A stretch of 57,820 nucleotides of DNA, from assembly GCA_905182385.1 (NCBI GenBank), contig CAJJBS010000016.1, positions 1-57,820 on the forward strand, written 5' to 3'. The number at the start of each line of letters is the position of its first letter. The first letter of the stretch is position 1. The notes beneath the pieces are model-generated. The model did no database searches and was not told the DNA's origin. It saw nothing but the letters and a program-made list of their open reading frames with translations. Of this stretch, positions 1 through 57,820 are shown one piece after another. This DNA is from Fidelibacterota bacterium TCS55 (GTDB taxonomy: Bacteria; Fidelibacterota; Marinisomatia; Marinisomatales; TCS55). The translations under genes and the position numbers were made by a program.

Positions 1-144
1 TAATTAGAGGTGTTCCAATTTGGTGTGTTCCAAATGACAATATATGGCATAGTATGAATCCATTTTGTCAGATTGCTAATACAAGTATTAACATCTTAAC
101 TTTGTATAACAAATTATACTTAACCGACAAAGGATTGAGGACAA

Positions 145-495
145 ATGGACGGATTTACAATCTATCATAACCCACGCTGAGGCAAGAGTAGGAAAGCACT
201 CCAACTATTGCGTGACAATGGTATTGAACCAAAAATAATTGAATATTTAAAGACTCCTCCTTCTTTCAATGAACTTGAGAAGATTTCTAAATTATTAGAT
301 AAACGGCCTTCAGATTTCACTAGAAAAGGAGAGTCAGAGTTTAAAGATAATCAATTAGTTGATTTGATAGATAAAGATCAAGAGATGATCAATGCGATGA
401 TAAAATATCCAAAAATAATTGAAAGGCCAATTGTTGTTAAAGGCCAGAAGGCAGTAATTGGAAGACCACCGGAAAACATAATGGAACTATTATAA
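145..495 (+). CDS. arsC: Glutaredoxin-type arsenate reductase (ArsC family) with an in-frame TGA (178-180) at the catalytic-Cys position; candidate selenoprotein
   Basis: ATG at 145 lies 4 nt after GAGG (137-140). The translation MDGFTIYHNPR-[TGA]-GKSRKALQLLRDNGIEPKIIEYLKTPP... is colinear with E. coli R773 ArsC (ITIYHNPACGTSRNTLEMIRNSGTEP...), so the TGA falls on Cys12. The Arg-triad contexts are kept (FTRKG, IERPIV, IGRPPE). The ORF track only reports the part from TTG 208, which is in the same frame. Confidence 0.7.
182..222 (+). promoter_or_regulatory. Candidate SECIS-like hairpin(s) just downstream of the in-frame TGA
   Basis: There are two mutually exclusive folds. (a) 204-210 ACTATTG pairs with 216-222 CAATGGT (7 bp including one G-U), with a 5-nt loop CGUGA about 33 nt after the UGA. 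(b) 182-189 pairs with 198-201 and 208-211, with an 8-nt loop AGGAAAGC. Both were hand-folded only. Confidence 0.35.
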
Positions 496-2458: not shown

Positions 2459-3553
2459 ATGAACTTTTCTTGTAGTGTTTGCAATAATATTTACGATTCT
2501 CCAAAAGTGCCTATTTGGCTTTGTGGCTGTGGTAAGCCCTTAGTTGTTAATTATAACTGGGAAAACAAAGTTAAATCAATTGATATAATAGAAGACGAAC
2601 TATCTCTTTGGCGATATAAAAGTGTTTTACCAGAAGTTGAAACAAAAATTTCTTTGGGAGAAGGCCATACGCCACTAATCCCAATTAGTAAAAATGTTTA
2701 TGTAAAAGATGAAACTGTAAACCCTACCGGATCTTTTAAAGATAGAGGGATGGCTTTAGCGGTTACAATGGCAAAAGCACAAGGGGTCAAAACTATTTGC
2801 CTTCCTTCTGCAGGAAATGCTGGAATATCAGCTGCCGCATACTGCGAAGCTGCAGAAATTGAATGTAATGTTTTTTTACCAGAAACCATTCCTGAAGCTT
2901 TTAAAAAAGAAACGGAGAAGTATAGTGCAAACCTAACTTTGAGTGGAAATACCATTTCTGACGCAGCTAAGTATATGCTTAATAATAAAGAAGATGAATG
3001 GTTTGATATCTCCACTTTAAAAGAACCTTTTAGAGTTGAAGGAAAAAAAACTTTAGGGTATGAAATTGCAGAGCAGCTAGGGTGGAAATTTCCTGATGTG
3101 GTTGTTTATGAAACTGGTGGAGGAACAGGTTTAATAGGCATGTGGAAAGCTTTCCAAGAAATGCAAGGAATGGGTTGGGTTAAAGGGACGTTGCCACGAA
3201 TGGTAGCAGCGCAATCTGATGGATGTGCTCCTGTGGTCAAGGCTTTTCAAGAAATGAAAAAAGATACAGAATTTTGGGAAAACAGCCATACCATAGCATT
3301 AGGCCTTAATGTACCAGGGCCATTAGGAGGAAAATGGATTTTGGATGTTTTATCGCAAAGCAATGGTATCGCGATCTCTATTCCTGAAGAAGATTTGCTA
3401 GCATCAACAAAAGACATGAATGACATCACGGGTATAAACTCAAGCGCTGAAGCTGGTGTAGTTTGGTCTGCATATAATACCTTATTAAAAATGGATTGGA
3501 TAAGCAATCAGGAGAGTGTTGTTTTATTTGCCACTGGTATAGAGCGTTGCTAA
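2459..3553 (+). CDS. thrC: Threonine synthase (short form, PLP fold type II)
   Basis: 364 aa with an N-terminal Cys ribbon (CSVCNN..CGCG), the PLP-lysine motif NPTGSFKDRG and the glycine loop ETGGGTG. Confidence 0.75.
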   Translation: MNFSCSVCNNIYDSPKVPIWLCGCGKPLVVNYNWENKVKSIDIIEDELSLWRYKSVLPEVETKISLGEGHTPLIPISKNVYVKDETVNPTGSFKDRGMALAVTMAKAQGVKTICLPSAGNAGISAAAYCEAAEIECNVFLPETIPEAFKKETEKYSANLTLSGNTISDAAKYMLNNKEDEWFDISTLKEPFRVEGKKTLGYEIAEQLGWKFPDVVVYETGGGTGLIGMWKAFQEMQGMGWVKGTLPRMVAAQSDGCAPVVKAFQEMKKDTEFWENSHTIALGLNVPGPLGGKWILDVLSQSNGIAISIPEEDLLASTKDMNDITGINSSAEAGVVWSAYNTLLKMDWISNQESVVLFATGIERC

Positions 3554-3580: not shown

Positions 3581-4663
3581 ATGAAGAACCAGATTAAAAA
3601 TACTCATATTATATTCTTGAGCTTATTATTTTTTGCATGCGAACCAATTGCTACAGAATTTGACGATATTGAAGCTGCTGTTGAGTATGAATCAGGGAAC
3701 TTGAAGGAATTTGGTCCAAAAAAAACCATAAAAGTAATGACCTGGAATATTCGATTTGGTGTTGCTCGATTACGATTTTTTGGAGATGGTTGCGGAGACA
3801 AGGTTATTATGACAAAGTCAGAAGTGACAACAGGTCTCAAGGGCTTAGCAGCAAAGATAATAGCTGAAGACCCTGATATATTATTATTGCAAGAGGTTGA
3901 TGTTCAGTCTAAAAAAACTGCCTACATAGATCAAGCTCAATGGTTATTAGATAACACGGACATGAACTATGGAGCCTATGGCTCAATGTGGCAAGCGCAG
4001 GCAATCCTTGCTGATGGCCTTGGAAGAGTTAATACAGGCAACCTAATTCTTTCTAAATGGAAATTAGAAAATGCTGAGAGGATTCAGCTTCCATTAAGAG
4101 GTGATCAGGATGGACTTACAAAATATTTTTATCTTCGAAGAAACGTACTAAAAGCCTTAGTAGATATGCCTGGTAATAAATTTTATGCTGTGAATACTCA
4201 CCTTACTGCATTTGCTACAGATGATACAAAACAAAAACATATTACGGGTTTTAAAAGTGTTCTTGATAATATTGCTGCTGAAGGGAAACATTTTGTTGCT
4301 GGTGGCGATCTTAATGAGCTCCCACCGAATGCTTTAAAGACAGATTATTGTATTGAAGATCAGTGTAGTAATGAGTCCTATCATACTGGCGGAGACACTG
4401 AGCATAAAGAAGGAGCCTATTTTACTCCTGAGATTACATGGCTAAATCCATTTTATAATACATATTCTCCCGCAATAACTCTTTTAGATTATGAAGACAA
4501 CGAGTCCGATCATTTTACCCATAGTCCTGATAATAATTTAAAATTAGATCGAAAACTAGACTATCTCTGGACTAATACAGAATGGATAAGCTCAAAAACA
4601 CATAAGGAAGCGACCAAGCTTTCAGACCACATTCCCGTAAGTGCCGTCTGGGAGATTAAATGA
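3581..4663 (+). CDS. Endonuclease/exonuclease/phosphatase (EEP) family lipoprotein
   Basis: 360 aa with a lipobox-like LLFFAC. EEP motifs are present: MTWNIRFG, LLLQEV, NTHL, GGDLN, SDHIPV. Confidence 0.75.
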   Translation: MKNQIKNTHIIFLSLLFFACEPIATEFDDIEAAVEYESGNLKEFGPKKTIKVMTWNIRFGVARLRFFGDGCGDKVIMTKSEVTTGLKGLAAKIIAEDPDILLLQEVDVQSKKTAYIDQAQWLLDNTDMNYGAYGSMWQAQAILADGLGRVNTGNLILSKWKLENAERIQLPLRGDQDGLTKYFYLRRNVLKALVDMPGNKFYAVNTHLTAFATDDTKQKHITGFKSVLDNIAAEGKHFVAGGDLNELPPNALKTDYCIEDQCSNESYHTGGDTEHKEGAYFTPEITWLNPFYNTYSPAITLLDYEDNESDHFTHSPDNNLKLDRKLDYLWTNTEWISSKTHKEATKLSDHIPVSAVWEIK

Positions 4664-5415
4664 AATTTTTTACTATCCTTTTATTTTTAGGAAGCTTAAC
4701 AGCACAGTGGACGAGTGGCTCTGCAAACCTAATTAAGCCAGGGAGAAAAGAAATTGGTTTATTTTCACCTATTTATATTGGTTTAAGTAATGGAAAAGAA
4801 GTCAGTGTAAATAAATTTTTACTTATGCCAAACGTCTCTCTTAAGCAGGAGCGCTCGATGATTGGTGAATGGAAAATAGCACAAAAAGTTCAAGTTGAAT
4901 ATCCGACAATAGGACTTAAATGGCTTCAAAGTCCTCTAGGAATGGAATTAGGTGAGCCAAACATGTTTGCTTTAATTTCACCCCAATTTAATATTCCACA
5001 AATGATCGCAGTTTATGGAGAGTTAATTGGTAGTAGAGGAACAGAAAAAACAGGCAGGATTACTATTCGAGGTGGAGGGGCTTTATCACTTGGTAAAAAG
5101 ATGTCAGAAGATGCGACAATAGACCTCCCTATTATTTATCCTCGTCTTTCAGTTTATTATAATGGCTCAGCTCTAAAAGTCGGTGGTGAATATTACCGTC
5201 AAGCAAAAGACCACTGGTCTTATTTAATTGATTATGACATGTTCTTAATGCCTGGAGGAAGAGGTCGTTATTCTTTTGAACATAAAGGGCTGTTAATCTG
5301 GTCAAAAAGTGAAAAATTTCGAATATTAACCGGTTACAAGCTCATTGCGGGTGAATACCCATTTGGCTCACAAGCTCATTTATTACCAGCGCTCGATATT
5401 CAATTTGGCTGGTAG
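4660..5415 (+). CDS. Hypothetical exported protein, possible outer-membrane beta-barrel
   Basis: 251 aa. The start overlaps the upstream stop (ATGA). It has a signal peptide (MKFFTILLFLGSLTAQ) and a beta-rich sequence ending in an aromatic residue (..LDIQFGW). I recognise no family. Confidence 0.5.
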   Translation: MKFFTILLFLGSLTAQWTSGSANLIKPGRKEIGLFSPIYIGLSNGKEVSVNKFLLMPNVSLKQERSMIGEWKIAQKVQVEYPTIGLKWLQSPLGMELGEPNMFALISPQFNIPQMIAVYGELIGSRGTEKTGRITIRGGGALSLGKKMSEDATIDLPIIYPRLSVYYNGSALKVGGEYYRQAKDHWSYLIDYDMFLMPGGRGRYSFEHKGLLIWSKSEKFRILTGYKLIAGEYPFGSQAHLLPALDIQFGW

Positions 5416-5431
5416 TCTTTTCAGGTTTTTT

Positions 5432-6988
5432 ATGATTACTTTATTAATTACCATCACCTTGATGGGTCAATCAAACTTGCCAGAAAACAATTTAGTTAAT
5501 GAACTTGGCTGTGGAAATTGCCATAGCGGGGTTAAAAATTCGTCTCTTATTAAAAAGAAGGCCCCCGACTTAAGTTATTCAGGATTAAAATATAACGAAG
5601 CTTATGTTTATGATTATTTAAAATCACCTCAAACAGTTAGGCAGCACATTGGTAATTCAAGAATGCCAAATTTTAATTTTTCAGATGATGAAGCGTATGC
5701 CCTAACACTTTATCTTATGAGTAAAACTTCTTTGCCTAAAGGGCGCAAGCTAAAAAAACGAAAGTATCAAAGCACAGATAATACATTTGAACTTATAAAT
5801 ACAGAATATCAGTGCACTGCTTGTCATAGCTTAAATGGTTCCGGCGTAAATAGATCGATTGATCTTTCCATAGCAGGTAGGAGGTTAAATCCAGAGTGGT
5901 TATTTGATATTATTTTAAAACCATCTGCTTATGTCCCAAGAGCATCACCCATGCCAACTTTCTTTAATGAAAATGAAGAAGCCTATGAGAAGATTTCTGA
6001 AATAGTTGGTTATTTAAATAATTTAGATAAGCCAAACTTGAAGAAGCTTAATTCAAATTATAAAAAAGTTTCAAAGGTAAATGCAATAGTTACAGCTGAA
6101 ATGGGTCAAAATATATTTCTATCACAAAATTGTATTTCTTGTCACAAAATGGATAGCGAAGAGTCCTGGTTTATTAACCATAATGCCCCAGACCTTAGTG
6201 CTCAAAAAATGAAAACTAAAACTGAATGGTTACTTAGTTATCTTAATGAGCCTTCTCCTATTAGACCAAACGGTTATTTTCCAGGTACTGGGAGTCGGAT
6301 GCCAAATTTTAATTTGAGTCAAAATGAAATTGAAAAGATTATGAAATGGCTAGGGTCGGCATCTTTAAAAACAAAACTAGAGCCAATCTCGGCTTTTCAA
6401 TCGCGTAAAGTAGAGCGACTACTAAATGATTACTTACCTTGTTTAGGCTGTCATGAATTAAATGGTAAGGGTGGTCAAATAGGACCAAGTTTATCAAATT
6501 CAGGTAATCGATTATTTGATGGATATATTAAAATGGGTATTCAAGTACCGCACATGGTTATGCCTGAAAGTATTATGCCAAAAACAGCGATGGACCCAAA
6601 GCTCATGCCTCTTCTTCAATCTTACTTCTCCAATGCAATAAGTGAAGAAAAAAATGAATATTTAAATTTAATCGAATATAAACCGTACCCAATTTCAAAT
6701 CAATATTCTTCAACTTGCGCTCCTTGTCACGGTCTCAAAGGACGAGGGGATGGTTTTAATGCGGAATTCTTACGAGTCCCTCCGGGTAATTTAGCAGATG
6801 GTAAAATAATTGGACAAAGAGCAGATGATACTTTATTTGAAACAATATATGGTGGTGGTAGAATAATGAACAAAAGTCATTTTATGCCAGCCTGGGGAGA
6901 AAAGCTTAGTCGAGAAGAAATTGTAAATCAGGTATCACAAATAAGAAAATTTTGTGATTGTAGTCCGCCAGAATGGTCAAAAAATTAA
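5432..6988 (+). CDS. Five-domain (pentaheme) class-I-type c-type cytochrome, exported
   Basis: There are five CxxCH motifs (CGNCH, CTACH, CISCH, CLGCH, CAPCH). Each is followed by a Met-Pro motif (SRMPNF, SPMPTF, SRMPNF, SIMPKT, HFMPAW), consistent with His/Met ligation. I prefer ATG 5432 (MITLLITITLMGQ leader) over the track's TTG 5345, which would overlap the previous gene by 71 nt. Confidence 0.85.
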   Translation: MITLLITITLMGQSNLPENNLVNELGCGNCHSGVKNSSLIKKKAPDLSYSGLKYNEAYVYDYLKSPQTVRQHIGNSRMPNFNFSDDEAYALTLYLMSKTSLPKGRKLKKRKYQSTDNTFELINTEYQCTACHSLNGSGVNRSIDLSIAGRRLNPEWLFDIILKPSAYVPRASPMPTFFNENEEAYEKISEIVGYLNNLDKPNLKKLNSNYKKVSKVNAIVTAEMGQNIFLSQNCISCHKMDSEESWFINHNAPDLSAQKMKTKTEWLLSYLNEPSPIRPNGYFPGTGSRMPNFNLSQNEIEKIMKWLGSASLKTKLEPISAFQSRKVERLLNDYLPCLGCHELNGKGGQIGPSLSNSGNRLFDGYIKMGIQVPHMVMPESIMPKTAMDPKLMPLLQSYFSNAISEEKNEYLNLIEYKPYPISNQYSSTCAPCHGLKGRGDGFNAEFLRVPPGNLADGKIIGQRADDTLFETIYGGGRIMNKSHFMPAWGEKLSREEIVNQVSQIRKFCDCSPPEWSKN

Positions 6989-7211
6989 ACTAAGGTTTTG
7001 CTGAAAAGACTTTGGTTTATAACCGTAAAGCTCTCTTAGGAAAGAGGAAATGTATTTCTTGAATTGAAAAAAATGAACGAGCAGTTGACCATATATATAT
7101 TTTTTAAAAATCGTCAAAAAAGTTTTTTAACTGAAAAGGCCATTTTAAAATAAAAGTTTTGTATATTCGAGACCAATTTAAGTACACGATGAATTATAGG
7201 AGGTATTACAA

Positions 7212-9284
7212 ATGAACATTAAGAAATATTTAATTTTACCATTACTGTTGATTTCAATAATAATGGGACAAGATAACAAAAAATTCAATTTTGAATTTGA
7301 AGCGGACTCAATCGAATTGCGGGTTGGCGAATCAAAGGAAGTGACGATTAAGTTATTAGATGAGAGTGGGAACCTTGCTCAAAATCCATTTTATGTATTT
7401 GGTCAACGAAAAACTTTATCAGTCTCTCCTCGAATAAGTGATTCCACAGGCGTTGCAACTGTTACAGTTACAGCGCATAAGCCAGGGAGATTAAGTTTAA
7501 GCACTCAGTCTATTACAATAAAACGTGACGATCGAATTAGAGGAACTTTAGTTGTTAATGTGCCTTCACCTCCTGTAGATCGTATTATTTTTAATCAAAA
7601 ACCATCAAAGCTTTACGTCCAAACAGCAACAGCATTATCTGTTGAAGTATTTGATGAAGCAGATTTAAACAGATCAGAGTTAAACGTAAAATTGGAATCA
7701 AGCAATTCAGGTGTAGCTGATTTTGATGCGTTTGGAAACTTAGAAACAAAGAAAACGGGCAAGACAACAGTGTCTGCTACAGTTGAGGGCCTTACAGAGT
7801 CTTTTAATATTCGTGTAGTTAAAAACCCAACACGTAAAGTGACTCTTTCTATTGATAAAGAGGAAATTAGAACTGGGGATGTACTGGCTTTGAATGCAAA
7901 AGCTTTAAATAGAAGTGATAGAGCTATAAATGATGCACCAATAACCTATACTTATGTTGGCAAAGCAGATTACGGCATGTTCGGTTTACCGGCAGCAGGG
8001 TTAGTAACTGACGATGGTAGATTTGTAGCTGAAACTGCAGGTATGTATACTCTTATTGCTTCATCTGGTGGGTATTCAGCCCAGAAAACAATTAAAGTTG
8101 TCCCAAGAAATATTCAGAAAAAAGCAAAACTTATTGGACATGGGCTGATAACTGACGTCCTTACCAGTGACTTATGGGTTTGGGCTGGAGTAGATAAGCA
8201 CAAAGGAAAAGATTTTGCAGTTACTGGCACATGGGGATCTAATGGAGAAGCATACTTTTGGGATGTTACCAATCCTGATAGTATGATCGTTATTGATACG
8301 ATAACTGTAGATGCGCGAACTGTAAATGATGTGAAAATATCTGAAGATGGACGCGTAGGGGTTATGACAAGAGAAGGCGCCTCAGATAGAAAAAATGGCT
8401 TTGTGGTTTTAGATGTTACAGATCCATATAATGTTACAATAACAGCAGAGTACAATGATGACATGACAGGCGGAGTTCATAATGTATTTATATATGAAAA
8501 TCATATTTATGCTGTAAATAATGGCCGTAAATATGATATTATTAACATTGACGATCCTTCAAAACCAAGACGTGTTGGAGTCTATGAAATAGATACACCT
8601 GGTCACAGCCTTCATGATGTTTGGATTGAAGATGGTATAGCCTACTCTTCAAATTGGAGTGACGGAGTTGTTGCGGTAGACATTGGTGGAATGAAATTTG
8701 ATGAAGCTGATCGCTCTCAGTTGCAGTTTAACCCTTTGTTAGCAAAAGCGGGCAAGGGAAGTCCATCAAATCCAATTAAACTAGCTGAAATGGGTGATCC
8801 AAATGGCTTAAATCACGCGGCCTTTCCATTTTTAAGTAAGTCAACGGGCAACTTTTATATTATAGGGGGAGATGAGACTTTTCCTTGGGGTGTAATGGCT
8901 ACTAAAGGACAGCCTTCAAACCCAAGAGGAGGCTTTCATTTTTTAAATTTTACAGACCCGGATAACCCTAAAGAAGATGCGGTCTATCAGGTTCCAGAGG
9001 CAGGATCTCACAACATGTGGGTATATGATGATGTCTTGATGGCTGCTTTTTACCAAGGAGGATTGCGCTTTGTAGATATATCTGGTGAATTACTTGGCGA
9101 TATTTATAATCAAGGGCGCGAGATTGCTGTATACCTTTCTGCACATAAAGAAGGAAAAATCCCTAACTCAACAATGGTCTGGGGAGCTCAGCCTTATAAA
9201 GATTATATATTCATTGCAGATATGAATTCAGGGCTCTATTGTATTCAATTAGAGGATTTAGAAAAAGGATCAGGTGCACCATAA
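7212..9284 (+). CDS. Exported Ig-like (Big_2-type) repeats plus LVIVD-type beta-propeller protein, paralog 1
   Basis: 690 aa. A strong RBS (AGGAGG) lies upstream, and a signal peptide is present. The N-terminal half has Big_2-like motifs (LRVGESKEVTIKL.., SSNSGVADFDAFGNLETKKTGKTTVSA). The C-terminal half has about 7 repeats ending in LVIVD-like strands (GFVVLDVTDP, YDIINIDDPSKP, GVVAVDIGG, GLRFVDISG, GLYCIQLED). Confidence 0.8.
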   Translation: MNIKKYLILPLLLISIIMGQDNKKFNFEFEADSIELRVGESKEVTIKLLDESGNLAQNPFYVFGQRKTLSVSPRISDSTGVATVTVTAHKPGRLSLSTQSITIKRDDRIRGTLVVNVPSPPVDRIIFNQKPSKLYVQTATALSVEVFDEADLNRSELNVKLESSNSGVADFDAFGNLETKKTGKTTVSATVEGLTESFNIRVVKNPTRKVTLSIDKEEIRTGDVLALNAKALNRSDRAINDAPITYTYVGKADYGMFGLPAAGLVTDDGRFVAETAGMYTLIASSGGYSAQKTIKVVPRNIQKKAKLIGHGLITDVLTSDLWVWAGVDKHKGKDFAVTGTWGSNGEAYFWDVTNPDSMIVIDTITVDARTVNDVKISEDGRVGVMTREGASDRKNGFVVLDVTDPYNVTITAEYNDDMTGGVHNVFIYENHIYAVNNGRKYDIINIDDPSKPRRVGVYEIDTPGHSLHDVWIEDGIAYSSNWSDGVVAVDIGGMKFDEADRSQLQFNPLLAKAGKGSPSNPIKLAEMGDPNGLNHAAFPFLSKSTGNFYIIGGDETFPWGVMATKGQPSNPRGGFHFLNFTDPDNPKEDAVYQVPEAGSHNMWVYDDVLMAAFYQGGLRFVDISGELLGDIYNQGREIAVYLSAHKEGKIPNSTMVWGAQPYKDYIFIADMNSGLYCIQLEDLEKGSGAP

Positions 9285-9322
9285 AAAGAGGATTTAGAAA
9301 AAGAATCAAGTGCGTCATAAAA
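9251..9322 (+). repeat. 36-nt tandem direct duplication of the gene 3' end, including its stop codon
   Basis: 9251-9286 (agaggatttagaaaaaggatcaggtgcaccataaaa) and 9287-9322 (agaggatttagaaaaagaatcaagtgcgtcataaaa) match at 32 of 36 positions. The second copy is in frame behind TAA 9282-9284 and ends with its own TAA at 9318-9320. Confidence 0.9.
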
Positions 9323-9336
9323 AATTGGAGAAAACT

Positions 9337-11391
9337 ATGAAAAAACTATATATACTTATATTAATCACTTTTAGTCTTGCTTTGGGACAAGAGAATTCTG
9401 AAAAAAAAGAAGCGAAGCACAGCTTTGTTTTTGAACCAGACTCCATCTCATTAAACATTGGTGAAACCAGAACGGTTACTATTAAACTTGTTGATGCTGA
9501 TGGAAATTTAGCCAAGACTCCTTTCTACGTTTATGGTAGACCAAGGCGTGCATTAGAATCAAGTCCAAGAATAAGTGATTCTACAGGCGTTGCTACAGTT
9601 ACACTTAAAGCGTTTAAACCAGGGAAGTTAAGCTTAAGTGTTAGAAGCATAGCTCAGAAAAGAGAAGATAGAGTGATGGGAAGTATGCCGGTTGAGGTTC
9701 CTTTTCCACCATTGGATAGGATTGTCTTTAATGAACCGGTTTCTAAAGTATATGTCGGAACATCTGTAAATTATAAAACAGAAGTTTTTGATAAAGCAAA
9801 TTTAAAAAGGACAGAATCAAAGGTGCTACTTTCATCAAGTAATTCAGATGTTGCTGAATTTGATAGTTATGGAAATTTAATAGCAAAAAAATCTGGTAAG
9901 ATTACACTGATTGCTTCAGTTGATGATATTAAAGAGAGCTTAAAAATAAAAGTATCGAAAAACCCTGTTCGCAAAATTAGCTTGACGGCTGATGAATCTG
10001 AAATTAGAACTGGAGATGTCTTACAATTCAACGCGCGAGCAATGAATAGGTCTAATAAGGTTATAAAAGACATCCCTATAACTTATTCTTACACAGGTCG
10101 TGCAGAGTATGGCATTGGATTGCCAGCATCAGCTTTAATTAATAAAGATGGAAAATTTGTAGCAGAGACTCCAGGTATTTTTACTGTAATTGCGCAATCT
10201 GGAGGTTTTTCAGCAAGAAAAACAGTTGAAGTTGTCCAACGAAATGTTAAAAAAGAAGTTAAGGTTGTAGGCCATGGAACCGTTGATGGTGTGAATACTT
10301 CAGATTTATGGGTATGGCCTGGAGTAGGTAAGCATAAAGGGAAAGACTTTGCTGCTACAGGAACATGGGGTGCGAATGGAGAGGCTTATTTTTGGGATGT
10401 AACAGAACCTGAGAATATGTATATCATTGATACCGTTACAGTTGACGCGAGAACGGTAAACGATGTCAAAGTTTCAGAGAATGGTGAAGTAGCTGTCATT
10501 ACTAGAGAAGGCGCATCAAATAGAAAAAATGGATTTGTTGTTCTAGATATTAGAGATCCATTTAATGTAAAAATTACAGCAGAGTATAATGATGATATGA
10601 CAGGTGGAGTTCATAATGTATTTATATATGAAAATCATGTTTATGCTGTTAATAATGGTCGTAAATACGACGTAATTAATATTGAAGACCCCTCTAAACC
10701 ACGAAGAGTGGGTCGCTATGAACTAGATACTCCAGGTCATGGAGTTCATGATGTTTGGGTAATAGATGGTCTTGCATATTCATCTAATTGGGCAGATGGT
10801 GTTCACGTTGTAGATGTTGGTGCAAAAAAATTCAATGAAAAGGACCGCTCTAAGAACCAGTATAACCCTTTTCTTGCTATGGCTAATGGCGATGGAAGCC
10901 CGGGAAACCCGATTAAGTTAGGTGGGATGGCAGATCCAAATGGTCATAATCATGCAGCTTTTCCTTTTATAAGTCAATCATCAGATAAATTTTATCTTAT
11001 CACTGGCGATGAATATGGTGGCCCATTTGGTATGGCTGGAGGGTTTCATTTCCTTGACTTTACAGACCCAAGTGACCCAAAAGAAACAGCGGTTTATCAA
11101 GTTCCAGAGGCTGGCTCTCATAATCACTGGGTTCATGGAGATACTTTATTAGCTTCATATTACCAAGGAGGGCTACGAGTCGTAGATATATCAGGTGAAT
11201 TAATGGGAGATATATATGCTCAAGGAAGAGAGATTGCTTTTTTTATGTCAAGTGATCCTAAAGGGTTTGTAGCAAATCGCCCAAATGTTTGGGGAACAAT
11301 GCCGTACAAAGGCCTGATTTATTTTTCAGATATGAATAATGGCTTGTGGGCAATCAAATTAGAAGATCAAAAACAAATGGGAACTAACTAG
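9337..11391 (+). CDS. Exported Ig-like (Big_2-type) repeats plus LVIVD-type beta-propeller protein, paralog 2
   Basis: It is colinear with 7212-9284 and shares long identical runs (SPRISDSTGVATVT, TAEYNDDMTGGVHNVFIYENH, AVYQVPEAGSHN). I prefer ATG 9337 (GGAG RBS, MKKLYILILITFSLALGQ leader) over the track's GTG 9310. Confidence 0.8.
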   Translation: MKKLYILILITFSLALGQENSEKKEAKHSFVFEPDSISLNIGETRTVTIKLVDADGNLAKTPFYVYGRPRRALESSPRISDSTGVATVTLKAFKPGKLSLSVRSIAQKREDRVMGSMPVEVPFPPLDRIVFNEPVSKVYVGTSVNYKTEVFDKANLKRTESKVLLSSSNSDVAEFDSYGNLIAKKSGKITLIASVDDIKESLKIKVSKNPVRKISLTADESEIRTGDVLQFNARAMNRSNKVIKDIPITYSYTGRAEYGIGLPASALINKDGKFVAETPGIFTVIAQSGGFSARKTVEVVQRNVKKEVKVVGHGTVDGVNTSDLWVWPGVGKHKGKDFAATGTWGANGEAYFWDVTEPENMYIIDTVTVDARTVNDVKVSENGEVAVITREGASNRKNGFVVLDIRDPFNVKITAEYNDDMTGGVHNVFIYENHVYAVNNGRKYDVINIEDPSKPRRVGRYELDTPGHGVHDVWVIDGLAYSSNWADGVHVVDVGAKKFNEKDRSKNQYNPFLAMANGDGSPGNPIKLGGMADPNGHNHAAFPFISQSSDKFYLITGDEYGGPFGMAGGFHFLDFTDPSDPKETAVYQVPEAGSHNHWVHGDTLLASYYQGGLRVVDISGELMGDIYAQGREIAFFMSSDPKGFVANRPNVWGTMPYKGLIYFSDMNNGLWAIKLEDQKQMGTN

Positions 11392-11399
11392 GATTTAAA

Positions 11400-12572
11400 A
11401 TGAAACGATTTACTCAATTTATACTAATATCCTTGATTGCAACTTTTTCACTAAGTGCCAAAGATTATTATATCTATTGTGCAACAGAATCTGAAGATGA
11501 AGTTGCTCTTATTAGGTTTGATGGTAAAACAGCACATGTTGAAAAACGTATTCCAGTTGGTGTTTGGCCATTAGAAATTGAAGGTCCTCATGGAATAACT
11601 GTATCACCAGATGGTGATTATTGGTATCTATCAATGGCTCACGGTCTTCCTTATGGTCATTTGTATAAATATAAAACAGGCTCAGATGAAATGGTTGATC
11701 GTGTAGAGCTAGGATTATTTCCAGCAACAATGGGAATTTCTAATGCCACTGGTTTAATATATATTGTTAATTTTAATTTACATGGAGGTCATACGGAGCC
11801 AAGCACTGTATCGATTGTCGATCCAGATGAAATGATTGAAATTGACCGAGTTGAAACAGGTATTATGCCGCACGGATCTAGATTGTTAAATAATGGACTA
11901 AAACATTATTCAGTTGCTATGATGTCAGGCATTTTATATGAAATTGATGCAATGACAATGCAAGTTACGCGGACCATGTCTACATCCCCCCCTCAAAAGA
12001 AAATGAATGCTCATAGTGGTCATAATATGAAAAAAATGGATCATGGGAGCATGAAAATGAGTAAAAATAAAGGGACGTCTAATAAAGATAAAAATGAAAT
12101 AGCAGCCATGGGAGAAATGAACCATGAGATGCCACCAGAGAAACCTACATGGGTATCCCCCCACCCAAATGATGATTTACTCTATGTAGTAAATAATGGT
12201 ACGGACAATGTGGTAGAAATCAATGTAAAAAGCTGGAAAGTAATACGCACTTTCAAAACAGATAAAGCGCCTTATAATTGTGAAGTGACTCAGGATGGAA
12301 GACACCTTGTTGTTACTTATAAAGGTGCTGCTAAAACGGGAGTTTGGGATTTAAAAACTGGTAAAGAAATAGCAAAGTTTAATAATACACGTAAAGTTAC
12401 GCACGGCGTTGTTATCTCTCCTGATAGTCGTTATGCTTTTGTTTCAGTTGAGGGAATAGGAAAAGAACCTGGTTCAGTGGAAATTTTTGACTTAAAAGAA
12501 TTAAAGGCCGTTGCTGTTGCTGAAATAGGTAAGCAAGCTGGTGGTATTGCTTTCTGGAAAATGGAAAATTAG
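11400..12572 (+). CDS. Exported YVTN-type beta-propeller protein with a Met/His-rich insert
   Basis: 390 aa with a signal peptide. It has YVTN-like repeats (PHGITVSPDGDYWYLS, LYVVNNGTDNVVEI, VTHGVVISPDSRYAFVS). Residues 193-249 form a low-complexity insert with 9 Met and 4 His (MNAHSGHNM, MDHGSMKM, MGEMNHEM). Confidence 0.75.
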   Translation: MKRFTQFILISLIATFSLSAKDYYIYCATESEDEVALIRFDGKTAHVEKRIPVGVWPLEIEGPHGITVSPDGDYWYLSMAHGLPYGHLYKYKTGSDEMVDRVELGLFPATMGISNATGLIYIVNFNLHGGHTEPSTVSIVDPDEMIEIDRVETGIMPHGSRLLNNGLKHYSVAMMSGILYEIDAMTMQVTRTMSTSPPQKKMNAHSGHNMKKMDHGSMKMSKNKGTSNKDKNEIAAMGEMNHEMPPEKPTWVSPHPNDDLLYVVNNGTDNVVEINVKSWKVIRTFKTDKAPYNCEVTQDGRHLVVTYKGAAKTGVWDLKTGKEIAKFNNTRKVTHGVVISPDSRYAFVSVEGIGKEPGSVEIFDLKELKAVAVAEIGKQAGGIAFWKMEN

Positions 12573-22965: not shown

Positions 22966-23988
22966 ATGACAGAAATACATATAAATGACCCGCAACCTTT
23001 CGATGATGATTTAGTTGTTGAAAAATCATTGCGGCCAAATCAAATGGATGAATTCATTGGGCAGAAAGAAGTTGTGGATAGTCTAAAATTATATATTGAA
23101 GCAGCCAATAATCGAAATGAAGCATTGGACCATGTTCTTTTATTTGGTCCTCCAGGCTTAGGCAAAACAACCCTTTCTCATATTATTGCAAAAGAATTAG
23201 GCGTTAGTTTAAAACAAACATCGGGACCAGTGCTTGATAGAGCGGGTGATTTAGCAGGGCTTTTAACAAACCTCCAAGGTAAAGATGTCTTCTTTGTTGA
23301 TGAGATTCATAGGCTTAATTCTGTAGTGGAGGAATATCTTTATTCAGCAATGGAAGATTATCGAATTGAAATAATGATTGACAAAGGCCCAAGTGCTAGA
23401 ACAGTACAGTTAAATATAGAACCCTTTACATTAGTTGGCGCAACAACACGGCTTGGGAACCTAACTTCCCCTCTAAGAGATAGATTTGGTGTTATTTTGC
23501 GTGTAGATTACTATGACCCAAAAGACCTTTTTCATATTTTAGTGAGGTCTGCAAAAATATTAGAAGTTGAAATAGATGATTCCGGAGCTATGGAACTTGC
23601 AAAACGATCTCGAGGCACACCAAGAATTGCAAATAGAATTTTGAGAAGAACGCGAGATTTTGCACAAGTTAAAGCGGATGGAAAAATTGATGAAACTGTT
23701 GCTAAGGCATCACTTAAATCATTAGGAATTGATTTATTTGGGCTTGATGATATGGATCGAGCTATTTTAACAGCAATAATTGATAAATTCAATGGAGGCC
23801 CTGTTGGTGTGAATTCACTATCTGTTGCGGTAAGCGAAGATTCTGCAACCATTGAAGATGTCTATGAACCATATTTAATTAAAGAAGGCTTTATCCAGCG
23901 AACCAATCGAGGCCGAATTGCTCAGAAGCTAGCCTATAAATTGCTGGGTAGAACAATTACTGAAAAACAACAAAGGTTATTTGAATGA
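22966..23988 (+). CDS. ruvB: Holliday junction branch-migration helicase RuvB
   Basis: 340 aa with Walker [10 protein letters not shown], Walker B VDEIHRL and RGTPRIANR. Confidence 0.97.
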
Positions 23989-32153: not shown

Positions 32154-32384
32154 ATGGCTTTTCAAAGTAGAAAAAAATTCTGTTTTTTTAAAGAAAATAG
32201 TATAACTGAAGTTGATTATAAAGATGTCAAACTATTAAAACGCTTTGTTACAGATCAAGGTAAGATTATGCCTCGTAGAATTACGGGAACGAGCGCTAAA
32301 ATGCATCGAAAATTAGTTAGAGCAATTAAGCAAGCTCGTAATATTGCACTAATGCCTTATACGAACATAAGCACTGAGGGTTAA
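32154..32384 (+). CDS. rpsR: 30S ribosomal protein S18
   Basis: 76 aa with [26 protein letters not shown] and [11 protein letters not shown]. Confidence 0.95.
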
Positions 32385-32386
32385 AA

Positions 32387-32830
32387 ATGGATATTATTTT
32401 ATTACAAGATGTTGAAACACTAGGAACTTCTGGCGATATTATAAAAGTTAAACCGGGATATGCTAGAAATTTCTTATTTCCCCGAGGACTAGCAGTTCGA
32501 TCTTCTAAGAGAAATAGAGCTTTGGCAGATGAGAAAAAGAATTCTGCAAAGGCAAAAGAATTAAGACAGGCTCACGTATATGAAGAAATGGTTGATAATT
32601 TAAAAAAGACTGAAGTGACAATTGAAGTACAGGTAGGAGAAGAAGATCGCCTTTTTGGATCAGTAACAAGTCAAGATATTCACAAGGCGTTAATTGAGAA
32701 AGGTGTAGAAATTGAGAGATCCTCAATTGAGCTTGAAGAACCAATAAAAGCATTAGGTGTTTATGCTGTTAATATAAAAGTTGCAAAGGGCTTGCTTCAA
32801 GAAATAAAGGTCTTTGTCATTCAAGCGTAA
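32387..32830 (+). CDS. rplI: 50S ribosomal protein L9
   Basis: 147 aa with MDIILLQDVETLGTSGDIIKVKPGYARNFLFPRGLA. Confidence 0.95.
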   Translation: MDIILLQDVETLGTSGDIIKVKPGYARNFLFPRGLAVRSSKRNRALADEKKNSAKAKELRQAHVYEEMVDNLKKTEVTIEVQVGEEDRLFGSVTSQDIHKALIEKGVEIERSSIELEEPIKALGVYAVNIKVAKGLLQEIKVFVIQA

Positions 32831-53832: not shown

Positions 53833-55242
53833 ATGAGTCTTATAAAATTTCAACGAACAATTGGCGATAAAACATCCTGTGTAGGCATAGGTCTACATAC
53901 GGGTGTTGAATCAAAAATCACTTTTAAACCAGCTCCTGATAATTTTGGCATTAGGTTTAAAAGGATGGATGTTGAAGGTTGCCCCGAGATTAGAGCAGAT
54001 ATTGACCATGTTGTTGATATTTCTAGAGGGACGACTATTGAGGAAAATGGAGTTAGAATTCATACGGTCGAGCATGCTTTAGCAGCGTGTGTTGGCTTAG
54101 GTTTAGATAATATATTAATTGAATTGACTGAAAAAGAGCCGCCAGTAATGGATGGAAGTTCAAAAGACTTTGTTGAAGCATTATTAAAAGCCGGAATTGT
54201 TAAACAAAATTCTCCAAGGGTTTATCTACATATTGATGAAGCTGTAGGCTACACTGATGCTGAAAGAGGTGTTGATATTCATATTATGCCATCTGATCAG
54301 TTTAGAATTACGTATATGATAGATTATGAATTTCAAACTTTAGGAACTCAATTTACAACATTAGACCAAGTTGAGAAAAAATTTGCAAAAGAAATAGCTC
54401 CAGCTAGAACTTTTTGCTTTTTAAGTGAAGTGGAGACATTAAAAGAAGAAGGGTTAATTAAAGGTGGAAACCTTGATAATGCTGTAGTAATTGTTGATAA
54501 AGATATTGATCAAGAGGAAGCGGACACTTTAAAAAGTTTATTTGGAATTAAGAAAGAAATTAGCTTAGGTGCGAATGGAACTTTAAATGGTAAAGAGCTT
54601 AGATTTGAAAATGAGCCAGTACGGCATAAAGCTCTAGATTTAATCGGAGACCTTGCCCTTTTAGGTATGCCAATTCAAGGACATATTATTGCTTCGAAAA
54701 GTGGACATGCTGCAAATGTGGAGTTAGTTAGACGAATAAAAAAAGTTTATGAAAAGAAAATTCTACAACAGAGATATCAAAAGAATCCATCCAAAGATTT
54801 CATGTTTGATATAAATGCTATTTTAGCTCTTTTACCTCATCGTTATCCATTTGTTCTGGTTGATAGAATAATCGATATTACACCTGGTGAAAAATTAACA
54901 GCTATTAAAAATGTAACTATTAATGAACCTTTTTTTAATGGTCACTTCCCAAATCAACCAGTAATGCCTGGCGTTTTAGTTTTAGAAGCTATGGCTCAAG
55001 CTGGTGCCTTATTATGTTTAAATAGTATAGATGATCCAATGAAAAAGAATATGTTCTTTTCAGCATTGTCAGATTCAAAATTTCGTCATCCTATAATCCC
55101 TGGAGATCAGTTACGTCTTGAAATGATACTTGCAAAGTTTAGACTTGGAACGGCATTACTTATTGGAAAAGCCTATGTTGGTGACAAACTTGTTGCTGAA
55201 GCCAATTTAAAAGCAACTGTTGTGGATCGGGCAGGAGCCTGA
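53833..55242 (+). CDS. lpxC/fabZ: Bifunctional UDP-3-O-acyl-GlcNAc deacetylase / 3-hydroxyacyl-ACP dehydratase (LpxC-FabZ fusion)
   Basis: 469 aa. The N-terminal LpxC part has GIGLHTG, HTVEHALAA, HKALDLIGDL and SGHAAN. The C-terminal FabZ hotdog has LPHRYPFVLVDRI and FFNGHFPNQPVMPGVL. Confidence 0.95.
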   Translation: MSLIKFQRTIGDKTSCVGIGLHTGVESKITFKPAPDNFGIRFKRMDVEGCPEIRADIDHVVDISRGTTIEENGVRIHTVEHALAACVGLGLDNILIELTEKEPPVMDGSSKDFVEALLKAGIVKQNSPRVYLHIDEAVGYTDAERGVDIHIMPSDQFRITYMIDYEFQTLGTQFTTLDQVEKKFAKEIAPARTFCFLSEVETLKEEGLIKGGNLDNAVVIVDKDIDQEEADTLKSLFGIKKEISLGANGTLNGKELRFENEPVRHKALDLIGDLALLGMPIQGHIIASKSGHAANVELVRRIKKVYEKKILQQRYQKNPSKDFMFDINAILALLPHRYPFVLVDRIIDITPGEKLTAIKNVTINEPFFNGHFPNQPVMPGVLVLEAMAQAGALLCLNSIDDPMKKNMFFSALSDSKFRHPIIPGDQLRLEMILAKFRLGTALLIGKAYVGDKLVAEANLKATVVDRAGA

Positions 55243-56712: not shown

Positions 56713-57820
56713 ATGAAAAGAATTTCAATACTTGGGTCTACTGGTTCTATTGGGATTAACACTTTAAGTGTCATTGATAAACTTAAAAATGAATTTAAGA
56801 TTGTTGCTTTAAGTGCGTATAAAAATGGAGAATTATTAGTTAAGCAAGCTAAAAAATATAAACCTGAAGTTGTTTCAATTATTGATTCAAAAGCTGCAGA
56901 GTTTGTAAAAAAAGAACTCTCTAATTCAAGCTCGAAAGTATTAGTGGGTAGAGAAGGCTTATTAGAAATATCTAAACGTGAGGATATTGACTTAATGTTA
57001 AATGGTTTAGTTGGCGCCTCTGGAATGGCTCCCACATTAAATTCTGTAGGGCAAGGCGTTGATGTTGCACTTAGCAATAAAGAAAGTTTAGTAATGGCAG
57101 GAGACCTTATCACAAGAACTTGTCAAGAAAAAAAAGCAAAAATATTTCCAATTGATAGTGAACATTCAGCTATATGGCAATGTCTTGTAGGCGAAGCTCT
57201 GGATGATGTTAAAAGATTAATTTTAACTGGAAGTGGTGGGCCCTTTAGAAGTAGAAATATTGATAGTTTTAAATCGATAACCCCTGAAGAAGCTTTGAAA
57301 CATCCCAATTGGGATATGGGTAGAAAAATAACTATTGACTCTGCAACTATGATGAATAAAGGTTTAGAAGTTATTGAGGCTTTATGGCTTTTTAAATTAG
57401 AGGCTAATCAAATAGATATTATTGTTCATCCTCAATCTATTATTCATTCCATGGTTGAATTCAAGGATGAATCTGTTAAAGCTCAATTAGGAATCCCAGA
57501 TATGAAAATCCCAATTCAATATGCTTTAACTTATCCGAGGCATTTAACTTCAAATTGGGAGGCCCTTGATTTAGTTAAAATTGGATCATTGACATTTGAA
57601 GACCCAAATTTAGAACGGTTCCCATGCATTGAGCTAGCATATGAAGCCTTACGTCAAGAAGGATCTACATGTGCAGTTTTAAATATCGCAAATGAACAAG
57701 CAGTTTACCGTTTTTTAAATCATCAAATTGGATTTATGGAAATACCTCGAATTATTGAAGAAGCTTGTAAAAAGCATGAATGGATTAAATCTCCAAATTT
57801 AGAGGATTTAAATCAAATTG
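56713..57820 (+). CDS. dxr: 1-deoxy-D-xylulose 5-phosphate reductoisomerase (3' end outside the window)
   Basis: This gene is not in the ORF track because there is no stop within the window. The translation MKRISILGSTGSIGINTLSVI..., LVGASGMAPTL, IDSEHSAIWQCL, LTGSGGPFR, NWDMGRKITIDSATMMNKGLEVIEA and HPQSIIHSMVEF is unmistakably Dxr. Confidence 0.95.
   Translation, partial: MKRISILGSTGSIGINTLSVIDKLKNEFKIVALSAYKNGELLVKQAKKYKPEVVSIIDSKAAEFVKKELSNSSSKVLVGREGLLEISKREDIDLMLNGLVGASGMAPTLNSVGQGVDVALSNKESLVMAGDLITRTCQEKKAKIFPIDSEHSAIWQCLVGEALDDVKRLILTGSGGPFRSRNIDSFKSITPEEALKHPNWDMGRKITIDSATMMNKGLEVIEALWLFKLEANQIDIIVHPQSIIHSMVEFKDESVKAQLGIPDMKIPIQYALTYPRHLTSNWEALDLVKIGSLTFEDPNLERFPCIELAYEALRQEGSTCAVLNIANEQAVYRFLNHQIGFMEIPRIIEEACKKHEWIKSPNLEDLNQI

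Follow-up and report, generated by a model that had tools for sequence, protein, structure and literature searches.

A UGA-containing arsC gene of SAR406/Marinimicrobia is a probable selenoprotein member of the glutaredoxin-type arsenate reductases

Introduction

Arsenate reductases containing selenocysteine (Sec) were first reported from the Sargasso Sea as a new selenoprotein family, with 14 sequences assigned to COG1393 and a UxxS motif (Zhang, Fomenko & Gladyshev, 2005, Genome Biol 6:R37). The Global Ocean Sampling (GOS) data added 77 sequences, named “ArsC 1” (pfam03960, again UxxS; Zhang & Gladyshev, 2008, PLoS Genet 4:e1000095), and a 2026 AEM review of prokaryotic selenoproteins includes the entry “Arsenate reductase, TIGR00014, UxxS” (PMC13188914). 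The gene described here, found near one end of a 57,820-nt stretch of DNA (“the window”), is therefore a member of a known family. It shares with the published sequences the COG1393/PF03960/TIGR00014 assignment, the position of the predicted Sec (the Cys12 column), the UxxS motif (here U-G-K-S) and an origin in marine plankton, and differs from them in nothing essential.

Two other kinds of protein invite comparison. The E. coli R773 ArsC has its nucleophile at the same position (12), the same arginine triad (Arg60, Arg94 and Arg107) and the same TIYHNP-x-C/U loop; unlike it, the window enzyme has a predicted Sec in place of Cys12, is 116 rather than 141 residues long, without the C-terminal tail of about 25 residues, and is encoded outside any ars operon. 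“Arsenate reductase 2,” or arsenate reductase-like selenoprotein (cd03032/NF041106), is likewise a marine selenoprotein of the ArsC/Spx superfamily, but it has a UxxC motif and belongs to an Spx/ArsC-related branch, whereas the window protein is UxxS and scores as TIGR00014.

For the RNA signal that directs Sec insertion, the natural reference is the fdhF-type SECIS element of E. coli, known from the work of Huttenhofer and Bock: a hairpin directly 3′ of the UGA, bound by SelB, with G and U in a small apical loop.

An earlier note on this DNA, made from its letters and a list of open reading frames, proposed that an in-frame UGA at 178-180 is a Sec codon. The analysis reported here supports that reading, with a probability that we put at roughly 0.88: the gene is an intact glutaredoxin-type (R773-class) arsenate reductase gene of SAR406/Marinimicrobia, in which Sec replaces the nucleophile Cys12. 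The Cys/Sec pairs found at this column, the selection acting on both sides of the UGA, and the standard genetic code of the window are among the grounds for it.

Results and discussion

Anatomy of the gene and family membership

Read from ATG 145, the frame gives MDGFTIYHNPR, the TGA at 178-180, and then GKSRKALQLLRDNGIEP..., continuing to TAA 493-495 with the TGA as its sole interruption (Table 1). As the earlier note had it, this frame is in phase with the ORF at 208-495, for a total of 116 codons, and a GAGG ribosome-binding site does lie 4 nt upstream of the ATG. The 5′ leader around the GAGG, AAAGGATTGAGGACAA-ATG, is conserved among Sec-form relatives. Mechanical ORF calling yields only the segment from TTG 208 to 495 (95 aa), and we agree with the objection already raised to this start, that it deletes the active-site loop: neither strand 1 nor the nucleophile would be present in such a protein.

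Table 1. Features of the arsC gene and candidate RNA structures within it. Positions are those of the window; p numbers count from the U of the UGA (p1), so that window coordinate = 177 + p.
Feature	Position	Strand	Remarks
GAGG, Shine-Dalgarno-like	137-140	+	4 nt before ATG 145
Complete arsC gene, predicted selenoprotein	145-495	+	116 codons; predicted UGA-Sec is codon 12; stop TAA 493-495
In-frame UGA, predicted selenocysteine codon	178-180	+	Column of catalytic Cys12; motif U-G-K-S (UxxS)
SECIS candidate fold A, long imperfect hairpin from the A of the UGA	180-213 (p3-36)	+	Pairs 182-185/208-211, 187-189/204-206 and 191-193/200-202; apical loop 194-199; from MFE and RNAalifold
SECIS candidate fold B, 7-bp stem ACUAUUG/CAAUGGU	204-222 (p27-45)	+	Loop CGUGA 211-215
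TTG, Leu22 codon of the full protein	208-210	+	Taken by gene callers as start of a 95-aa ORF
Arg60 codon AGA, ArsC arginine triad	322-324	+	Alignment with 1I9D
Arg94 codon AGG, ArsC arginine triad	424-426	+	Alignment with 1I9D
Arg107 codon AGA, ArsC arginine triad	463-465	+	Alignment with 1I9D

For profile scoring and structure alignment, U12 was modelled as Cys. The product then matches the NCBIfam equivalog TIGR00014, “arsenate reductase (glutaredoxin),” over residues 5-116 with 132 bits (cut-off 106.05), and Pfam ArsC (PF03960) with 59.6 bits (E = 3.9e-16; cut-off 24 bits). The Spx/MgsR model gives just 46 bits, under its own cut-off. Against E. coli R773 ArsC (PDB 1I9D) the alignment is gap-free, residues 1-116 on 1-116, with the UGA falling on Cys12 and with R60, R94 and R107 all kept; the colinearity, the exact placement of the TGA and the retention of the three catalytic arginines, each proposed at first from the letters, are thus borne out. 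The whole-protein equivalog score, the nucleophile at position 12 and the arginine triad together place the protein in the R773 class.

Conservation of the UGA and Cys/Sec pairs

The DNA of 160 related loci was taken from genome and metagenome collections. With the window counted, the codon in the Cys12 column is TGA in 52 loci, a recurrence far beyond chance, and TGC or TGT in 98, which supplies the Cys/Sec pairs that the earlier note had suggested looking for. The 52 TGA loci represent 32 distinct sequences (the window counted), with 45-91% protein identity to the window enzyme; the 51 others come from independent metagenomes and from Marinimicrobia metagenome-assembled genomes (MAGs), and in them the reading frame stays open before and after the TGA. 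Homologues without TGA have Cys at this column in every case. All six of the closest genome loci (L001-L006) have TGA; they belong to Marinimicrobia-like MAGs, and the titles of four name Marinimicrobia or Neomarinimicrobiota.

At the protein level the same column looks different, owing to how these genes have been called. Among the best 120 database homologues, 62 have Cys, mainly in the form NPRCSKSR; 53 have Trp (NPRWGKSR, with one NRRWGKSR), where metagenome gene callers, using code 4, have translated the TGA as W; and five (P0010-12, P0014 and P0054, in a public protein collection) are 95-aa truncations starting at the Leu22 codon. Public gene calls for Sec-form arsC are therefore systematically wrong in 58 of these 120 entries, either by truncation to 95 aa from Leu22 or, on short contigs, as a 116-aa code-4 product with Trp in the active site.

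Upstream and downstream of the UGA alike, nucleotide variation follows the pattern of a translated sequence. Across 39 distinct genes of the Sec form, diversity in codons 1-11 is 0.08, 0.05 and 0.24 at codon positions 1, 2 and 3; the Arg11 codon, next to the UGA, varies among CGC, AGA and CGG. Downstream of the UGA the corresponding values are 0.29, 0.18 and 0.54. Because codons 1-11 vary mostly at third positions, this stretch is evidently translated and shares its frame with the remainder of the gene.

These observations bear on two of the alternatives to Sec insertion. Under the first, the TGA would be an artefact of sequencing or assembly, or else a mutation that inactivated the gene only very recently and made it a pseudogene. 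One window by itself would be compatible with this, as would the fact that automatic calling gives just the 95-aa ORF. The same TGA is nevertheless found in 51 other loci of independent assemblies, among 32 distinct sequences at 45-91% identity, in a frame open on both sides where third codon positions dominate the variation. Since the TGA has been kept so widely, with purifying selection to either side of it, error and recent pseudogene can be set aside, and the chance that we would still allow them is next to negligible. Of the three options originally listed for this locus (Sec insertion, sequencing error and very recent pseudogene), Sec insertion alone survives.

The second is that the UGA does terminate translation, the product being a 95-aa protein from TTG 208 without the catalytic loop and the first 11 codons an untranslated leader or tiny upstream ORF. 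Public calls of exactly this form exist, namely the five truncations mentioned above, and no Sec machinery is seen among the window proteins and tRNAs scanned. Against it, the pattern of change in the 11 upstream codons is that of coding sequence read in this same frame, and these codons encode TIYHNPR, the conserved ArsC active-site loop; a conserved Shine-Dalgarno sequence and ATG are found at 137-147, with nothing of the kind before TTG 208; and the protein would be left without strand 1 and its nucleophile. Relatives thus do have conserved, coding-like sequence upstream of the TTG, and termination at the UGA seems to us highly improbable.

Some of the Sec forms are quite divergent from the main clade (L062:1070, L146:4159, L127:2009, L122:2660 and L140:527); three of these (L062, L146 and L122) have USKSR in place of UGKSR.

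The genetic code of the window

Of the 53 ORFs in the window that reach 110 aa or more, 11 have TGA as their stop; together the 53, called under code 11, span 93% of the sequence. The examples first pointed out as ordinary stops (4661-4663, 23986-23988 and 55240-55242) hold up, and the genes for RuvB and for an LpxC/FabZ fusion end at a TGA right where their family models end. As TGA is a frequent genuine stop here, a reassigned code is excluded, and the UGA at 178-180 is the single one predicted to be recoded. A search of TGA-bridged ORFs in all frames, and of intergenic gaps, gave no other credible selenoprotein gene in the window, a minus-strand case at 57125 being left outside this verdict. 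One TGA-bridged candidate, at 32375, was rejected: it lies just 5′ of a 147-aa ORF (32387-32830) which, judging by eye, we take to be that of ribosomal protein L9.

A third alternative to Sec insertion is that the UGA is read through without Sec, whether by near-cognate suppression with tRNA-Trp or tRNA-Cys, aided by RNA structure, or through a lineage-specific reassignment of UGA. Downstream structures can stimulate read-through generally, and the presence of Sec machinery in the window's own genome is presumed. The use of TGA as genuine stop of 11 of 53 window ORFs argues against this alternative, however, as does the nature of the column: it holds a redox nucleophile, which is Cys in every homologue without TGA (the classic Sec/Cys pattern), and Trp at position 12 would abolish catalysis. 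The family is moreover already catalogued as a selenoprotein. Read-through of this kind is accordingly judged very unlikely, and selenocysteine is taken in what follows as the residue most probably encoded by the UGA.

RNA structure downstream of the UGA

Synonymous variation is halved in the codons that follow the UGA, a sign of constraint at the RNA level: third-position diversity is 0.27 in codons 13-27, vs. 0.54 in codons 28-105. It falls to zero in codons 22-24 (UUG-CGU-GAC) and in codon 28; the UUG-CGU-GAC run is invariant in 29 of 29 Sec forms and variable in Cys forms. Two mutually exclusive folds, here called A and B (Table 1), are both conserved and are candidates for the SECIS.

Fold A, a long hairpin beginning in the UGA itself, has the lowest free energy of the structures predicted for the window RNA (-13.2 kcal/mol, z = -2.4), and it is also the RNAalifold consensus of 29 sequences. 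Its p12:p27 pair is UA in 17 sequences, CG in 11 and UG in one, and is never broken. At least seven of its eight core pairs can form in 29 of 32 Sec forms, vs. one of 90 Cys forms. It also offers an explanation for the Sec-specific Gly codon GGC that follows the UGA, through the pairs G5-C34 and C6-G33.

Fold B is the hairpin at 204-222 that was singled out as a SECIS candidate from the sequence of the window. In an alignment of 29 sequences 99.5% of its cells are paired, its CGUGA loop is invariant, and its p30:p42 pair is GC in 20, AU in six and GU in three; double changes that keep the pairing are thus seen both here and at p12:p27. That U36 and C39 never vary is accounted for by this fold but not by fold A. 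As a control, however, at least six of its seven pairs can also form in 37 of 90 Cys homologues: those coding for LLRDNG mostly form it, which makes the hairpin largely a by-product of coding. The p30:p42 covariation was likewise downgraded as proof of fold B, since Cys homologues show the same GC/AU/GU spectrum (with only two AC) and the spectrum can thus arise by codon and GC bias.

Folding energies do not separate the two sharply. Under constrained folding, fold A averages -11.9 kcal/mol and fold B -11.3 kcal/mol, A being the better in 11 of 19 sequences and B in 8 of 19. For the window sequence (represented by locus L081, identical over 50 nt) the values are -10.5 and -8.3 kcal/mol, and ViennaRNA applied to the window's own sequence likewise prefers 180-213 over 204-222. 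A pairing of 173-177 with 210-214, which appeared in one minimum free energy fold, was rejected, the upstream bases being variable in relatives (CGC vs. AGA). With Rfam at the gathering threshold, the whole window gave a tRNA-Gln only, and a permissive scan of 120-320 gave only chance-level matches and no SECIS family.

Comparison with the fdhF element is similarly divided. Both candidates resemble it as stem-loops inside the coding sequence right after the UGA; fold A starts at the UGA, and the small loop of fold B, CGUGA, contains a G-U that never varies. On the other hand, 33 nt separate the loop of fold B from the UGA, where fdhF has about 22 nt; in fold A the apical loop varies in sequence; no Rfam model matches; and SelB binding here is a prediction. 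Of the original SECIS proposal, then, the existence of the 204-222 hairpin and the invariance of its loop stand, while its standing as a signal in its own right is weakened by the coding explanation and by competition with fold A. Judged from sequence comparison, a structured element specific to Sec forms is predicted to cover 180-222, and its assignment as SECIS to either fold is partly supported.

A speculative way to accommodate both folds is a two-state RNA, with both states under selection across SAR406: in one the 180-213 hairpin would form, in the other a small hairpin together with that at 204-222. We regard this as doubtful. If it were true, RNA conformation would regulate how the SECIS is presented to SelB and, with that, whether Sec is inserted or translation terminates.

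In three of the divergent Sec forms (L062, L146 and L127) the main-clade folds A and B are both absent. In L127 there is a 5-bp hairpin, loop AGUUA, at p16-30, and L062 and L146 have, by eye, a GAAAAUC/GAUUUU(A) stem whose loop, CGUUGA, lies at p21-26, a spacing closer to that of E. coli fdhF. This hints at independent SECIS solutions, or at independent Cys-to-Sec events.

Some Cys forms approach the same structures from the other direction. In L051, L060, L067 and L159, LLRDNG written in common codons (CUG UUG CGN GAC AAC GGN) forms a 7-bp hairpin at p27-45 of its own accord, which may be a pre-adaptation of ArsC genes for the gain of a SECIS.

An apparent mosaic allele and a relic second copy

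One Cys-form gene (L161:101-451, protein P0009) looks like a mosaic. Over the last 264 nt it shares 97.3% identity with a Sec form (L083:1495-1845), whereas the first 90 nt of the coding sequence are 66.7% identical and the 46 alignment columns 5′ of the ATG 50%. The Cys/Sec difference between the two is therefore carried by a 5′ module that has been replaced and extends to some 55 nt past the Cys/Sec codon, which suggests that a 5′ module with UGA and SECIS was exchanged by recombination with a Cys allele. A more general form of this idea, joined to the two-state RNA above, would have the UGA-SECIS module moving between Sec and Cys alleles by recombination; as a combined proposal we consider it unlikely.

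The window and L083 show a contrast of the opposite sense: their first 90 nt (145-234 in the window) are 98.9% identical, and the remaining 264 nt 79.5%. Either very strong constraint at the RNA level or spread of the 5′ module via gene conversion would produce this.

A relic second copy is present in L001 (6943-7005), about 3 kb 5′ of the main arsC gene (L001:9965-10315). It retains a partly similar leader, ATG, 11 codons, TGA and some 16 nt, followed by divergence and stop codons, and may be what is left of a duplication, or else an artefact of assembly.

Genomic context and host lineage

The arsC gene is followed in the window by an asparaginase-like gene (496-981), an unassigned 452-aa ORF on the minus strand (984-2342) and a threonine synthase gene (2459-3553). 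Its TAA (493-495) directly abuts the ATG (496) of the asparaginase-like gene, which encodes 161 aa, and this pairing is kept in four other loci (L161, L162, L084 and L092); the conserved adjacency suggests that the two probably form one operon. No arsB, acr3 or arsR was found near the window gene, nor 5′ of the gene in three relatives, whose upstream genes encode pentapeptide-repeat, MORN-repeat and unassigned proteins, none of them arsenic-related. In view of this lack of an ars operon context, arsenate is proposed as the substrate from homology alone.

Within the 57.8-kb window, NCBIfam models applied to the proteins of 20 of the 53 long ORFs, together with a tRNA scan, revealed no selA, selB, selD or tRNA-Sec. 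ARAGORN found no tRNA of any kind in 48 Sec-form loci. SelD has been reported in the literature from three SAR406 single-cell genomes.

The window is assigned to this lineage from the closest genome loci and from its RuvB, which shares 95-99% identity with proteins bearing the name “Candidatus Marinimicrobia bacterium”; the window has a GC content of 33.5%. Further along, at 5345-12572, are genes for a 547-aa multi-haem c-type cytochrome, in which one module is SoxX-like and another cbb3-subunit-III-like, and, after it, for two “choice-of-anchor B” proteins of about 690 aa and a beta-propeller protein. This may be a redox or cell-surface gene cluster.

Proposed mechanism

By the standard bacterial mechanism, translation of the gene would start at ATG 145. 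At the UGA, a complex of SelB, GTP and Sec-tRNA(Sec), tethered to a stem-loop in the next 45 nt or so (180-222), would outcompete release factor 2; Sec would be inserted and translation would go on to the TAA at 493. Sec insertion itself is what we infer from the comparisons above, and which fold SelB would bind depends on the structural predictions already discussed. By homology with R773 ArsC, the selenolate of Sec12 would then attack arsenate held by Arg60, Arg94 and Arg107, and the resulting Se-As adduct would be resolved through glutathione and glutaredoxin, releasing arsenite.

Significance

The value of these results lies in the correction of annotations and in lineage assignment; they propose no new mechanism and settle no open question. 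To the published family they add a SAR406/Marinimicrobia home for most copies, a pair of conserved folds that compete in the region after the UGA, and the Cys-form mosaic. The long-known marine Sec-ArsC is thereby placed mainly in an abundant uncultured ocean lineage, with the implication that SAR406 spends selenium on a putative arsenate-detoxifying enzyme.
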